UHGV virus genome: UHGV-1612078
Strand: one strand, 5' to 3'
Length of the DNA stretch: 25,976 bases
Source: a virus
The number at the start of each line of letters is the position of its first letter. Position 1 is the stretch's first letter. Below, in pieces: positions 4,489 through 9,166 of the stretch. The notes under the pieces were generated by a model that was not told the DNA's origin, searched no databases, and saw only the letters and a program-made list of their open reading frames with translations. Both the position numbers and the translations under genes were made by a program.

Positions 4489-4969
4489 TTTTAAAAACTC
4501 GCTGGTATGATTTAGATGATGGGGACGATGGCATTTCAGTTGATAGAGTTGACTGGAATGGTTGTTCCGAAGATATGAAAAATTTGTTGATTAGGGAGTT
4601 TAGAATGGGATATCAAGCAGCTAAGCCATCTACTATAACAGACGATAAATTCGTGTGTATTCAAAACGGTCGTGCTAAGTTAACGAACGCTGAATGGTTT
4701 ACGGATAAGAATATGCTTCTGTGGTATATCATTAGTCTTCCTGTGTCATCATTCGTATTTTACTTCTTTGGAAAAAATCCAATGGACAGAATAGGAGATT
4801 GGGTTCTTTGTACTATATTTGTTAATATTTTGACAGCAGCAATATTATCTGGGATATGGTGTGTGTTCATTGAAATGCCATGGCGTTTACGCAGACAACA
4901 AAAGATTTTTGATGAAAAGAAATATACTCAAAATTTAAATAACTTTATCACTGAATGCAGGAAATTAAA

Positions 4970-4973
<4 letters not shown>
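4485..4973 (+). CDS. small membrane protein, paralog 3
   Basis: N-terminal soluble region then hydrophobic segments. C-terminal NFITECRKLK. ATGA overlap with the preceding gene. Confidence 0.6.
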
Positions 4974-5942
<969 letters not shown>

Positions 5943-5976: not shown

Positions 5977-6036
5977 ATTCACAGTTACTTGAAGAGCCAA
6001 ATTATTAATTAAAATATTTACATTTAAAGGATACAC

Positions 6037-6510
6037 ATGAAAACATATCAAGAATTTATTACTGAAGCAGCTATTAATTCTCAAATTATTGCTGAATCTT
6101 TTACTGATCTTTTGAAATTTAAAAAAGGACAGAAAATCACTGCTGTACTGGATGATGGTACAGAAGTTGAGATGGATGTACAAGGATATAATTATGCAGT
6201 AGATGGAAAACTGTATAATAAATCTCATGCTAAATTTGATTCATTTGACGACTTTGTTAATACAGTTGAAGATGAAAAAACTCGTCGATCCATTGCAACA
6301 GGTGATGCTAAGGTTCTTATGGCACATAGCCATGAACGCATTCGCGCTAAACAGAATAAAATGGGTGAAGATAATTTCGCATTAGTTGGTTATCAATCTG
6401 GTAAACAAACTTATGGCTATCAACGTACTGCTACCATGTATAATAAAAATGGTAAAATTGCCTTTGTAAATAGTAAAGGTTCTATTCAGTACGTTAAATC
6501 GTTCAAATAA
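6037..6510 (+). CDS. internal protein (IPIII/IPII-like) with capsid-targeting sequence
   Basis: N-terminus MKTYQEFITEAA is the T4 internal-protein leader. Position directly after e matches ipIII in T4 synteny. Confidence 0.75.
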   Translation: MKTYQEFITEAAINSQIIAESFTDLLKFKKGQKITAVLDDGTEVEMDVQGYNYAVDGKLYNKSHAKFDSFDDFVNTVEDEKTRRSIATGDAKVLMAHSHERIRAKQNKMGEDNFALVGYQSGKQTYGYQRTATMYNKNGKIAFVNSKGSIQYVKSFK

Positions 6511-6651
6511 TATGGGAACAACCTGGACCTTATGATTCTATAAGGGATTCCCGCCAACCTGTAATAAGGTCGAGCCCAAGTGCGGTAATGGGTAAATACA
6601 GAAATGGACAATTCATGCGCCATGGAATGGCCCAAACCTAGAGAGAACAAA

Positions 6652-7191
6652 ATGAGAACATTTTTAACTGGTCCTTATCTATCCCTGATGAATGCTTTTA
6701 CACACCATTCTGATGCTAGAGTAGAAGAAATTTGTAAAAACGAATATATCCCGCCATTTGAAGACTTACTTAAACAGTATTGCACACTTCGACTAGATGG
6801 TGGACGTCAATCCGGTAAATCAATTGCTGTGACTAACTTCGCTGCTAATTGGTTGTATGATGGCGGAACAGTTATTGTTCTTTCTAATACTTCAGCTTAT
6901 GCTAAAATTTCTGCAGATAACATCAAAAAGGAATTTTCGCGTTATTCTAATGATGATATACGTTTTCGTTTATTTACTGATTCTGTACGCAGTTTTATTG
7001 GTAATAAAGGAAGCAAGTTCAGAGGTTTATCGCTTTCGCGAATTTTGTATATAATTGATGAGCCTGTCAAATCTCCTGATATGGATAAGATTTATAGTGT
7101 CCATATTGACACTGTACACTGCTGCTGTAATATTAAATGTTGTATTGGTGGTATTACTCGTCCACAGTTTTTCGTAATTGGAATGCAATGA
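6652..7191 (+). CDS. small P-loop NTPase-like protein (Walker A GRQSGKS, Walker B LYIIDEP)
   Basis: SD agagag then ATG 6652 (MRTFLTG...). Walker A resembles terminase-type RQxGK(S/T). Cys-rich C-terminus. ATGA overlap with the next gene. Confidence 0.5.
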   Translation: MRTFLTGPYLSLMNAFTHHSDARVEEICKNEYIPPFEDLLKQYCTLRLDGGRQSGKSIAVTNFAANWLYDGGTVIVLSNTSAYAKISADNIKKEFSRYSNDDIRFRLFTDSVRSFIGNKGSKFRGLSLSRILYIIDEPVKSPDMDKIYSVHIDTVHCCCNIKCCIGGITRPQFFVIGMQ

Positions 7192-7517
7192 TGACAGACA
7201 CTCAGCTTTTCGAATATCTTTATTTTTCGCCAAAAACTATTAAAAATAAATTGGTGAATCATTTTGAAATTTTGGCAAATAACAACATTTTAAGCGAATT
7301 TTATCCCAAGCAATACAAATTACAAAAAGGTGTATTCAAAGGATGCAGAGTTTTGTGCACTGCTCCTAATGCACGGCTAATGAATAAAATTCCATATTTT
7401 ACCATGGAATTTATTGATGGACCTTTTAAAGGATTAATTACCCAAAGTTTAATGGCATATGATTCTGAGCCGTTTTTAATTAAAGAACAATCCTGGATAA
7501 ATTTATTTTCTAATTGA
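7188..7517 (+). CDS. hypothetical protein (109 aa)
   Basis: ATG-ATG start overlapping the upstream stop (translational coupling). No motif recognised. Confidence 0.5.
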
Positions 7518-7524
7518 GGTTTAT

Positions 7525-7887
7525 ATGAAAGCATATCAAATTCTTGAAGGCACACATAAAGGTACTATTTATTTTGAAGATGGTATTCAAGCACGAATTA
7601 TCGTTTCTAAAACCTTTAAAGAGGACTCTTTTGTAGACCCAGAAATTTTCTATGGTTTGCATGCCCGTGAAATTGAAATTGAGCAACAGCCTACAGTTAA
7701 AATTGAAGGTGGTCAACACCTGAACGTTAACGTTCTGCGTCGTGAAACTCTGGAAGATGCAGTTAAGCATCCGGAAAAATATCCGCAGCTGACCATCCGT
7801 GTATCCGGTTATGCAGTTCGCTTTAACTCTCTGACTCCGGAACAGCAGCGCGACGTTATCGCTCGTACCTTTACTGAGAGTCTGTAA
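7525..7887 (+). CDS. autonomous glycyl-radical cofactor (GrcA/YfiD-like)
   Basis: C-terminal about 60 aa ([60 protein letters not shown]) matches my recollection of E. coli GrcA, including the RVSGY glycyl-radical motif. SD gagg. Confidence 0.85.
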
Positions 7888-8108
7888 TGGCAAAGATAAT
7901 TATTGAAGGTTCTAAAGATGTGCTAAATGCTTTCGCAGAATGGTTTAGTAATTCAGGCGAACAGCAATTTAATGAAGCGTGGAATATGGGTGATATTAGT
8001 GGAATTTATCCTACGACAGAAATTTCTGTTCAGGGATATGGCATTCATGAACCTATTCGTTTAGTTGAATATGATTTATGTACTGGTGAGGAAGTCAAAT
8101 ATGATTGA
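7887..8108 (+). CDS. hypothetical protein (73 aa)
   Basis: Start overlaps the upstream stop (taATG). Confidence 0.5.
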   Translation: MAKIIIEGSKDVLNAFAEWFSNSGEQQFNEAWNMGDISGIYPTTEISVQGYGIHEPIRLVEYDLCTGEEVKYD

Positions 8109-8704: not shown

Positions 8705-9166
8705 ATGACTATCAATACAGAAGTTTTTATCCGTCGAAATAAGCTTCGTCGTCACTTTGAGTCGGAGTTTCGTCAAATTAACAATGAGATTCGTGAGGCA
8801 TCAAAAGCAGCAGGGGTCTCATCGTTTCATCTAAAATATTCTCAACATCTTCTTGATCGCGCAATTCAACGGGAGATTGATGAGACATATGTTTTTGAAT
8901 TATTCCATAAAATAAAAGACCATGTTTTAGAAGTTAATGAATTCCTGAGTATGCCTCCGCGTCCTGACATTGACGAGGATTTTATTGATGGGGTTGAATA
9001 TCGTCCTGGACGTTTAGAAATCACAGATGGAAATCTTTGGCTTGGATTTACAGTTTGTAAACCTAATGCGAAGTTCAAAGACCCGTCGCTTCAATGCAGG
9101 ATGGCAATTATTAACAGTCGTCGTTTACCAGGAAAGGCTTCTAAAGCAGTAATTAAAACTCAATGA
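8705..9166 (+). CDS. regB: RegB endoribonuclease (cleaves GGAG in early mRNAs)
   Basis: 153-aa protein beginning MTINTEVFIRRNKLRRHFESEFRQ, matching my recollection of T4 RegB. SD gaggag. Confidence 0.9.
   Translation: MTINTEVFIRRNKLRRHFESEFRQINNEIREASKAAGVSSFHLKYSQHLLDRAIQREIDETYVFELFHKIKDHVLEVNEFLSMPPRPDIDEDFIDGVEYRPGRLEITDGNLWLGFTVCKPNAKFKDPSLQCRMAIINSRRLPGKASKAVIKTQ

Follow-up and report, generated by a model that had tools for sequence, protein, structure and literature searches.

The sequence analysed here, called the window throughout, is the whole stretch of 25,976 nucleotides (nt) from the virus genome UHGV-1612078, and our subject is the locus at 6652-7517 together with the block immediately upstream of it. 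The original prediction for this locus was a split or novel ATPase standing in for denV, which encodes a DNA-repair enzyme. The two open reading frames (ORFs) found there are, with near-certainty, orthologues of the bacteriophage T4 genes vs.8 and vs.7. Both genes are already known and annotated in T4 (NP_049732 and NP_049731, respectively). The pair itself is therefore ordinary, and it is no substitute for denV. The part that deserves follow-up is the leader RNA that precedes vs.8, which could matter more than the protein pair.

The vs.8-vs.7 gene pair

In the T4 reference, the equivalent of the window's + strand is the minus strand. The features of the gene pair are as follows.

6641-6645, + strand: putative Shine-Dalgarno-like GAGAG, 6 nt 5′ of the vs.8 AUG, read from the sequence
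6652-7191, + strand: vs.8 orthologue, 179 amino acids (aa); phrog_1488, E = 2.7e-79, residues 3-179 of 179; 92% identity to T4 Vs.8
6799-6822, + strand: Walker A motif GGRQSGKS, residues G50-S57, from the sequence
7042-7062, + strand: Walker B motif ILYIIDE, residues I131-E137, then P138, from the sequence
7120-7143, + strand: cysteine-rich stretch, C157, C158, C159, C163 and C164, from the sequence
7188-7191, + strand: ATGA overlap between the vs.8 stop codon TGA (7189-7191) and the vs.7 start codon ATG (7188-7190), from the sequence
7188-7517, + strand: vs.7 orthologue, 109 aa; phrog_2049, E = 3e-54, residues 1-109; 99% identity to T4 Vs.7
7305-7472, + strand: predicted KOW/SH3-like barrel of Vs.7, residues ~40-95, from AlphaFold2 and Foldseek

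Chance ORFs were excluded by the PHROG family matches and by the 1010 phage records in which the vs.8 product was matched (tblastn). The annotations of RB14 and RB32 name the same two ORFs vs.8 and vs.7, and the position of the family is conserved: the e/ip region lies upstream of vs.8, and vs.7 and vs.6 come after vs.8. T4 Vs.8 (T4p119, phrog_1488) shares its 92% identity over 179 residues, and its neighbours vs.7 and vs.6, its strand and its leader are alike. T4 Vs.7 (T4p118; phrog_2049, PF26834) has the same length of 109 aa and the same ATGA overlap with vs.8, and no difference of note was seen. All Vs.7 homologues carry PF26834. No main-text paper on vs.8 was found in the literature, mentions being confined to supplementary tables. 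In some GenBank records (hits H30, H43, H67, H75, H107 and H177; P0004, P0006 and P0029), homologues of Vs.8 and Vs.7 go under the names "endoribonuclease", "RegB domain-containing", "terminase large subunit" or "IpIII internal head protein", and the present analyses gave no support for any of these names.

The vs.8 reading frame was listed as 6604-7191 (+), of which the part from ATG 6652 encodes the 179-aa product. We assign the true start to ATG 6652 because homologues from many genera begin M(R/K)TFLT; the ATGs at 6604 and 6622, both within the structured leader, are unconserved. Purine-rich counterparts of the GAGAG motif were present in other phages. T4 Vs.8 differs in its annotation, which adds 40 aa at the N-terminus (219 aa in total), and this extension results from an 8-nt duplication, CTTATAGAG, in the leader (L002, T4 NC_000866, 5793-5913, corresponding to window 6540-6651). 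The extension frame is closed by TAG 6639-6641 in the window and is broken in RB14 and RB69, with RB69 showing a 1-nt deletion in the leader core. Because the frame is broken in this way, and because indels occur whose lengths are not divisible by three, the leader was rejected as the N-terminus of Vs.8. The 219-aa product of the T4 annotation is probably an artefact that over-extends into non-coding RNA, the conserved start being MRTF.

The locus was compared across 35 T4-like loci from IMG/VR, in which Vs.8 is as little as 33% identical to that of the window. In 31 of these 35 divergent loci, vs.8 and vs.7 still overlapped by ATGA or TAATG, and such a junction was found in T4, RB69, VR20, X20 and Roth51. 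Judged from this arrangement, vs.8 and vs.7 are translationally coupled by the 4-nt overlap, and the coupling is conserved across genera. No vs.8-vs.7 fusion was found among the homologues in 5.8 billion clustered proteins and 1.8 billion representatives. Homologues of Vs.8 were 130-260 aa long, and the few long ones were extended at the N-terminus.

The motifs DGGRQSGK(S/T) and IIDEP were invariant in 18 Vs.8 sequences, down to 40% identity. The full set of family-invariant residues was D49-G-G-R-Q-S-G-K56, R113, R124-G125, I134-I-D-E-P138, F173, G177 and Q179, and the C-terminal strand FFVIGMQ was conserved. The AlphaFold2 model of Vs.8 (18 sequences; predicted local distance difference test score, pLDDT, 81.5) showed five strands alternating with helices in the additional-strand catalytic-glutamate (ASCE) fold, and its only low-confidence region was residues 160-168 (pLDDT <50). 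The cysteine-rich stretch, whose C-terminal end overlaps this region, was unconserved outside the closest genera; a metal site as a family feature has no support. According to the model, Vs.8 consists of one whole but minimal P-loop nucleoside triphosphatase (NTPase) domain of the ASCE division, ~175 aa long and standing alone. The domain belongs to the terminase/helicase type: its P-loop contains Arg-Gln, its Walker B motif is followed by a catalytic Glu, and its C-terminal end falls at the motif-III strand.

Profile matches of Vs.8 to the large terminase subunit (TerL) were weak (phrog_2, E 9.4e-6; Pfam Terminase_6N, E 0.11), with Terminase_6N reaching 12.5 bits against a cutoff of 22 and across 37 residues only. 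Pfam AAA_14 scored 15.7 bits (cutoff 27), and a TraB/FtsK-like "DNA translocase coupling protein" profile gave E values of 0.04-0.07. Foldseek against the PDB returned the SLFN11 helicase, DSH9, RecD, the phi29 gp16 N-domain, the P74-26 TerL ATPase and KaiC, and helicase domain 1 matched Vs.8 as well as terminase ATPase domains did. Predicted viral structures gave many matches to the model, all to uncharacterised proteins that are 145-175 aa long and belong to large lytic phages, including Proteus phiP4-3, Vibrio JSF10, Aeromonas phiAS5 and the jumbo phages 201phi2-1 and PhiPA3. Sequence searches of the PDB with Vs.8 and Vs.7, as single sequences and as profiles, gave insignificant matches only. 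For the two proteins, NCBIfam and PADLOC gave nothing beyond an insignificant HerA match for Vs.8 (PADLOC, E 0.032).

The ATPase domains of large terminases (T4 gp17 N-domain, P74-26 TerL and phi29 gp16) share with Vs.8 the ASCE fold, an R-Q before GK(S/T) and an hhhhDE Walker B. They differ from it in architecture and in setting: TerL proteins have 400-700 aa, with an ATPase and lid followed by a C-terminal RNase H-like nuclease, whereas Vs.8 has 179 aa (a domain of ~175 aa), ends at the motif-III strand and contains neither lid nor nuclease domain. TerL is expressed late, is essential and is encoded among packaging genes; Vs.8 is early, non-essential and encoded away from them, its neighbours being ip, vs.6 and regB, and TM-scores to the terminase domains were 0.45-0.48. 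The RecA-like domain 1 of superfamily 1 and 2 helicases (RecD, DSH9 and SLFN11) gave the best Foldseek matches in the PDB (E 1e-3 to 1e-2). Vs.8 differs from these enzymes in having one RecA-like domain, and for this reason Vs.8 alone is no helicase.

Several descriptive elements of the original prediction were thus borne out. The 179-aa ORF contains the Walker A GRQSGKS and Walker B LYIIDEP motifs where they had been placed, it is coupled by ATGA to the 109-aa ORF, and its odd C-terminus has five cysteines at residues 157-164, though these vary across the family. The invariant motifs, the five-stranded ASCE model and the TerL profile matches, weak as they are, agree with a small P-loop NTPase that has a terminase-like Walker A, and profile searches with the 6652-7191 product did return such matches. 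"Terminase-like" was a fair description of the P-loop; as a description of the protein it failed, since Vs.8 is no terminase.

The AlphaFold2 model of Vs.7 (33 sequences) had a pLDDT of 91 and showed an N-terminal helical hairpin and a small beta-barrel. The top Foldseek matches were all KOW domains (the Kin17 C-terminal KOW, Spt5 KOW5 and the ribosomal uL24 type), and a GPFKG motif was conserved in the Vs.7 core. Pfam gave no family for Vs.7 at an E value of 1 or better, and hence no KOW profile match. We predict that Vs.7 is an independent fold composed of a helical hairpin and a KOW/SH3-like barrel. It would resemble the KOW/SH3-like domains of Kin17, Spt5 KOW5, NusG and uL24 in the predicted barrel and the GPFKG motif, and differs from them in the added N-terminal hairpin and in falling below Pfam KOW detection. 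The Klebsiella-type and X20-type homologues of Vs.7 were without the hairpin.

In T4, an omics time course placed both vs.8 and vs.7 in the class "early RNA, early protein" (PMC9697503 supplements). Neither gene was essential: insertions hit all 59 sites in vs.8 (59 of 59) and 25 of the 26 in vs.7 (bioRxiv 10.1101/2025.11.20.689424 supplement). The vs.8 gene was fragmented or frameshifted in the records of the T2 escape mutant PV648364 (L106, 2487-3133), SV76 (H35) and Lutter (H39), which is consistent with a dispensable gene.

The leader RNA upstream of vs.8

Conservation extended ~140 nt 5′ of vs.8 and began exactly at the Ip4 stop codon in the window and at the denV stop codon in T4. The block is non-coding because its frame is closed by the TAG at 6639-6641 in the window and broken by the RB69 deletion; reading frames across the leader were broken between phages. 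A covariance model, R1, was built from a structure-blind MAFFT alignment of 12 RB69-type copies (RNAalifold), and in the window it gave exactly one match, at 6509-6635 (68.6 bits, E 2.4e-16). The predicted elements are as follows.

6509-6635, + strand: structured leader RNA upstream of vs.8, from the Ip4 stop codon to 16 nt before the vs.8 AUG (covariance model R1)
6514-6552, + strand: helix P0, GGGAA 6514-6518 with UUCCC 6548-6552; covarying; encloses P2
Within P0, + strand: hairpin P2, CCUUAU 6528-6533 with AUAAGG 6540-6545; compensatory change
6523-6601, + strand: long-range helix P1 of three base pairs, CUG 6523-6525 with CAG 6599-6601; covariation
6557-6593, + strand: near-invariant core, hairpin P3 ACCU-GUAAUA-AGGU (6557-6570), then CGAGCCCAAGUGCGGUAAUGGGU; one occurrence in the window, 0 expected
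6604-6633, + strand: 3′ module, AUGGAC..., then hairpin GCCA-UGGAA-UGGC (6619-6631) with GGA motifs; the hairpin covaries

P1 crosses P0, and the leader would thus form a pseudoknot. Pairing in P0 was maintained as GGGAG/CUCCC in L036 and as AAAGGC/GCCUUU, AAAGCU/AGCUUU and AAAGA/UCUUU in RB69-type copies, and in P2 the pair U6531-A6542 of the window is replaced by C-G in T4 and RB14. All four Watson-Crick types were observed at the middle position of P1 (CG 14, UA 10, AU 7 and GC 5), and three at the next position (GC 26, CG 9 and AU 2). In the 12 RB69-type copies, aligned without regard to structure, P1 took the forms CCG/CGG, CAC/GUG, CGC/GCG and CCA/UGG. The same copies yielded with RNAalifold a long hairpin P2, an invariant P3 (ACCU-GUAAWA-AGGU) and a terminal hairpin GCCA-NGGAA-UGGC, and the 3′ hairpin covaried to GGCA/UGCC in L015. 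RNAalifold also proposed a helix 3 (CCUUU with a 3′ AARGG), with 85.9% of cells paired and little covariation; P0, which pairs a 5′ AAAGG with CCUUU, performed better, and helix 3 is a possible alternative pairing.

In an alignment of 54 sequences, 94.7% of cells were paired, compared with 87.7% after shuffling and 33-42% with the partners slid, and 15 pairs changed on both sides, compared with 5.1 in shuffles. For the P0 and P1 pseudoknot on the MAFFT alignment, 98.7% of cells were paired (26-46% when slid), and five pairs showed double changes, compared with none. These patterns of covariation indicate that 6509-6635 is a conserved structured RNA with crossing helices.

In 34 of the 35 T4-like loci, R1 placed the leader upstream of vs.8, with 10-25 nt between its end and the start codon. 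It was conserved where Vs.8 was only 37-42% identical, including in RB69, VR20, X20 and Klebsiella phages. A tandem pair of leaders precedes vs.8 in L027 (Edwardsiella phage PEi20-like, 5049-5306), L117 (2213-2470) and L126 (2220-2477), and some gene callers translate through these tandem leaders (e.g., the 246-aa P0042). The 3′ module alone occurred 15-35 nt 5′ of the start codons of other genes (L005, 2404-2476; L028, 9894-9994; L036, 2168-2271) in the form (A/U)GGAC...GCCA-NGGAA-UGGC, with GGA in the hairpin loop. We take this hairpin to resemble GGA hairpin sites of the CsrA type.

A core of ~40 nt, ACCUGUAAWAAGGUCRAGC...GCGGUAA, was common to T4-like myoviruses, Vequintavirus genomes (isim, A135 and others), siphoviruses of 46-70 kb (relatives of KP591P1, BUCT541 and Pylas) and further contigs. 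In phages that are not T4-like, the core lay on the same strand as arrays of transfer RNA (tRNA) genes, either before the array, within it or directly behind it, and no homologue of Vs.8 or Vs.7 was found near it in the Vequintavirus and siphovirus loci. In the siphovirus type, seen in 46-kb contigs (L013, 5256-5452; L088, 1290-1440; L078, L084 and L102), a long covarying stem, AGUGCUCUU..GUUGUG / CACAAC..AAGAGCAYU, encloses the core. Similar stem halves recur between the tRNA genes, which suggests excised units, and these stem-enclosed units are possibly substrates of RNase III. In Vequintavirinae-like contigs (L038, L040, L045, L085, L090 and L103), an extended -10 promoter-like sequence, TGCTATACT, comes before the element and a near-consensus TTGACA-N17-TATGGTAAACT promoter after it, and two copies of CCCWUAGAGGGCUUGAWAGUGC flank it. 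There, the element looks like an independent small RNA gene.

A search for the core in bacterial genomes gave 30 18-mer matches in 596 Gb. These were rejected as chance matches, because ~70 were expected by our own estimate and none was accompanied by the second half of the motif. Rfam 15 gave no match to the leader at the gathering score and none in the window at an E value of 10 or better, and nothing was found in four related loci at an E value of 1 or better; an identity as a group I intron, ribozyme or riboswitch was rejected on these empty scans. No conserved sigma-70 promoter or terminator was found in 6509-6651, and the TTTACA of RB69-type copies had no conserved -10. In the phage records inspected, the site of the leader carried no annotated feature or spurious ORFs only. 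The element is thus a covarying, putatively pseudoknotted RNA of more than 1000 phage genomes, T4 included, that appears to be unannotated and outside Rfam.

Interpretation and alternatives

Taken as a whole, the locus is well explained as orthologues of T4 vs.8 and vs.7 that encode an ASCE NTPase and a KOW-like partner, are preceded by a structured leader and have an accessory role, and we consider this explanation likely to be correct. Vs.8 and Vs.7 would be produced in equal amounts and would act as a two-subunit machine, in which Vs.8 would bind and hydrolyse nucleoside triphosphates and provide nucleotide-dependent switching or motor activity. Vs.7 would dock the pair onto nucleic acid or onto a component of host transcription or translation. 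The role may be in host takeover or counter-defence, as for the neighbouring ip genes, vs.6/GrcA and regB, and translation or stability of the vs.8-vs.7 message is probably governed by the 3′ portion of the leader. The putative Vs.8-Vs.7 complex of this model is a possibility only, and on balance the less probable outcome. The pair is widely conserved among T-even phages as an early pair, and its NTPase and KOW-like architecture gives a concrete hypothesis that can be tested.

Several observations weigh against this explanation. No homologue of Vs.8 or Vs.7 with an assigned function was found. The structural matches of Vs.8 were weak and generic (TMq 0.39-0.53, Foldseek E 1e-3 or worse in the PDB), and so were those of Vs.7 to KOW domains (E 0.02-0.3, TMq 0.3-0.38). 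A remote Vs.8-like subfamily (P0065, P0067, P0069 and P0074) is without the Walker A Lys and the catalytic Glu, having GH(S/T) for GK(S/T) and VDxA/IDCS for DE. These proteins may be non-hydrolysing relatives, and NTP hydrolysis may therefore be inessential to the role of the family. The pairing of vs.8 with vs.7 is not universal, since the distant Vs.8-like gene P0060, between gene 39 and rIIA, has no vs.7-like neighbour. Finally, the minimum free energy z-score of the leader, calculated from the window sequence alone, was unremarkable at -0.17; a single-copy score of this kind is uninformative, and the case for structure comes from covariation.

The alternative from which this analysis started, a novel or frameshift-split ATPase that substitutes for denV and whose two halves are the two ORFs, now has next to no likelihood. 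It drew on the ATGA overlap, on genuine P-loop motifs and on a true absence: denV was indeed not recognisable after the internal-protein gene, T4 DenV having no match in the entire 26-kb window (tblastn, best E 8.5), and neither ORF had a Pfam match of the DenV type. T4 DenV (endonuclease V) is, however, linked to the pair by position only. The T4 order is ipIII-ipII-denV-vs.8, so vs.8 is the downstream neighbour of denV and not its replacement; vs.8 likewise lies just downstream of denV in RB69, VR20 (Gaprivervirus) and Serratia phage X20, and 30 of the 35 T4-like loci had a denV homologue upstream of vs.8, no more than 2.5 kb away. The gene maps of T4, RB69, VR20 and X20 already refute the substitution, and the comparison across T-even genomes that had been proposed as a check showed denV and vs.8 coexisting, with only the upstream cassette differing. 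A split is contradicted by the lack of any fused homologue, by the overlap and frame offset conserved across genera, by the complete Vs.8 domain and by a Vs.7 that folds independently in the model. Nor is the ATPase novel, as both genes are annotated in T4 and were detected there as early proteins. A different reading would make Vs.8 a terminase-derived ATPase module for DNA packaging or translocation, for example a regulator or decoy of gp17, with Vs.7 as its DNA-binding partner. The RQxGK(S/T) P-loop is typical of TerL, and the phrog_2, Terminase_6N and TraB/FtsK-like profiles and the Foldseek matches to phi29 gp16 and P74-26 TerL point the same way. Early expression, dispensability, the missing nuclease and lid domains, an accessory early region distant from the packaging genes and equally good matches to helicase domain 1 make this very unlikely.

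As for the leader, one proposal is tentative, and the balance is close without quite favouring it: that it belongs to an undescribed class of pseudoknotted phage RNA of 125-146 nt, recruited in T4-likes as the vs.8-vs.7 leader, and that it may be the target of Vs.7. It could act as a processed stable RNA or as a cis-acting element for processing, antitermination or translation control; control of the translation or stability of the vs.8-vs.7 message is one option, and processing or antitermination could act on transcripts that are not translated. The vs.8 leader is tied to vs.8 in nearly all loci and ends close to the AUG; KOW folds commonly bind RNA. These points suit an RNA-binding Vs.8-Vs.7 pair that targets its own leader, either for autogenous translational control as with gp32 or in a ribonucleoprotein particle. 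T4 has a precedent in the gene 32 leader pseudoknot, which is a translational operator (PMC3014915) and would be the nearest functional analogue of the vs.8 leader. Both are pseudoknotted 5′ leaders of T4 early genes, a few tens of nt before the start (PMC3014915), but the sequences are unrelated, the vs.8 leader is larger (~125-146 nt) and its core also occurs away from ORFs beside tRNA genes. Either form of such self-targeting is unlikely, given the core in Vequintavirus and siphovirus loci without nearby Vs.8 or Vs.7 homologues and the full element before an ip-like gene, not vs.8, in Klebsiella phages. We find it improbable, too, that the block is a recombination linker acting at the DNA level in swaps of the ip/denV cassette, with no functional RNA. 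Such a linker would account for a block that starts exactly at the stop codon of the upstream gene and flanks a hypervariable region, and promoter early stem-loop (PeSL) cassettes are known in T4-type phages (PMC2839356, PMC4122927). A PeSL combines a simple stem-loop with the early promoter TTTACW-N17-TAYWAT and is present in many copies per genome (PMC4122927). The leader resembles it as a conserved intergenic block beside variable genes in hyperplastic regions (PMC4122927), but it is multi-helix, covarying and without a conserved promoter: no promoter-like site was found in 6509-6651 of the window copy, and the core occurs once in 26 kb. Compensatory changes preserve P0, P1, P2 and the terminal hairpin, G-U pairs appear on the sense strand only, and the core is also found within tRNA arrays of unrelated phages, all of which argue against a linker. 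A 2010 review recorded that T4 had, at the time, neither a characterised riboswitch nor a characterised small RNA acting in trans (PMC3014915). If the proposal of a new RNA class is true, the leader may represent the regulatory or structured RNA still uncharacterised in T4 at that date (PMC3014915).

Neighbouring genes and the upstream cassette

The DNA closest to positions 6000-8000 of the window was that of the Escherichia phages FL08, RB27, RB14 and RB32 (97-98.5% identity), by which the window is assigned to a Tequatrovirus of the T2/RB14 type. The other features are listed here.

1-578, + strand: tRNA array of six tRNA genes, the first truncated by the window edge; ~6 kb upstream of the leader RNA
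4955-5410: nudE
5448-5942: lysozyme gene e
6037-6510, + strand: gene for the internal virion protein Ip4; Pfam DUF7412, 4.8e-95; phrog_3155 "internal virion protein", 4.9e-101
7525-7887, + strand: vs.6, the next gene 3′ of vs.7; GrcA/YfiD-like autonomous glycyl-radical cofactor; Pfam Gly_radical, 2.5e-18
Between vs.6 and regB: vs.5, vs.4 and vs.3
8705-9166: regB

RB14 and RB32 carry the annotation Ip4 for the gene at 6037-6510, which has an equivalent position in T2. An identity as T4 ipIII or ipII was ruled out, the gene being Ip4 (DUF7412). The gene order e-Ip4-vs.8-vs.7-vs.6 of the window was also that of RB14 and T2, whereas in T4 the order is e-ipIII-ipII-denV-vs.8-vs.7-vs.6. From this comparison, the changed part is the cassette between e and vs.8, where Ip4 alone stands for the ipIII-ipII-denV of T4, as in T2. 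T2 is classically more sensitive to ultraviolet light than T4, for want of the v (denV) function, and a T2-like phage without denV, such as that of the window, fits this difference. The vs.6 of the window was 98% identical to that of T4.

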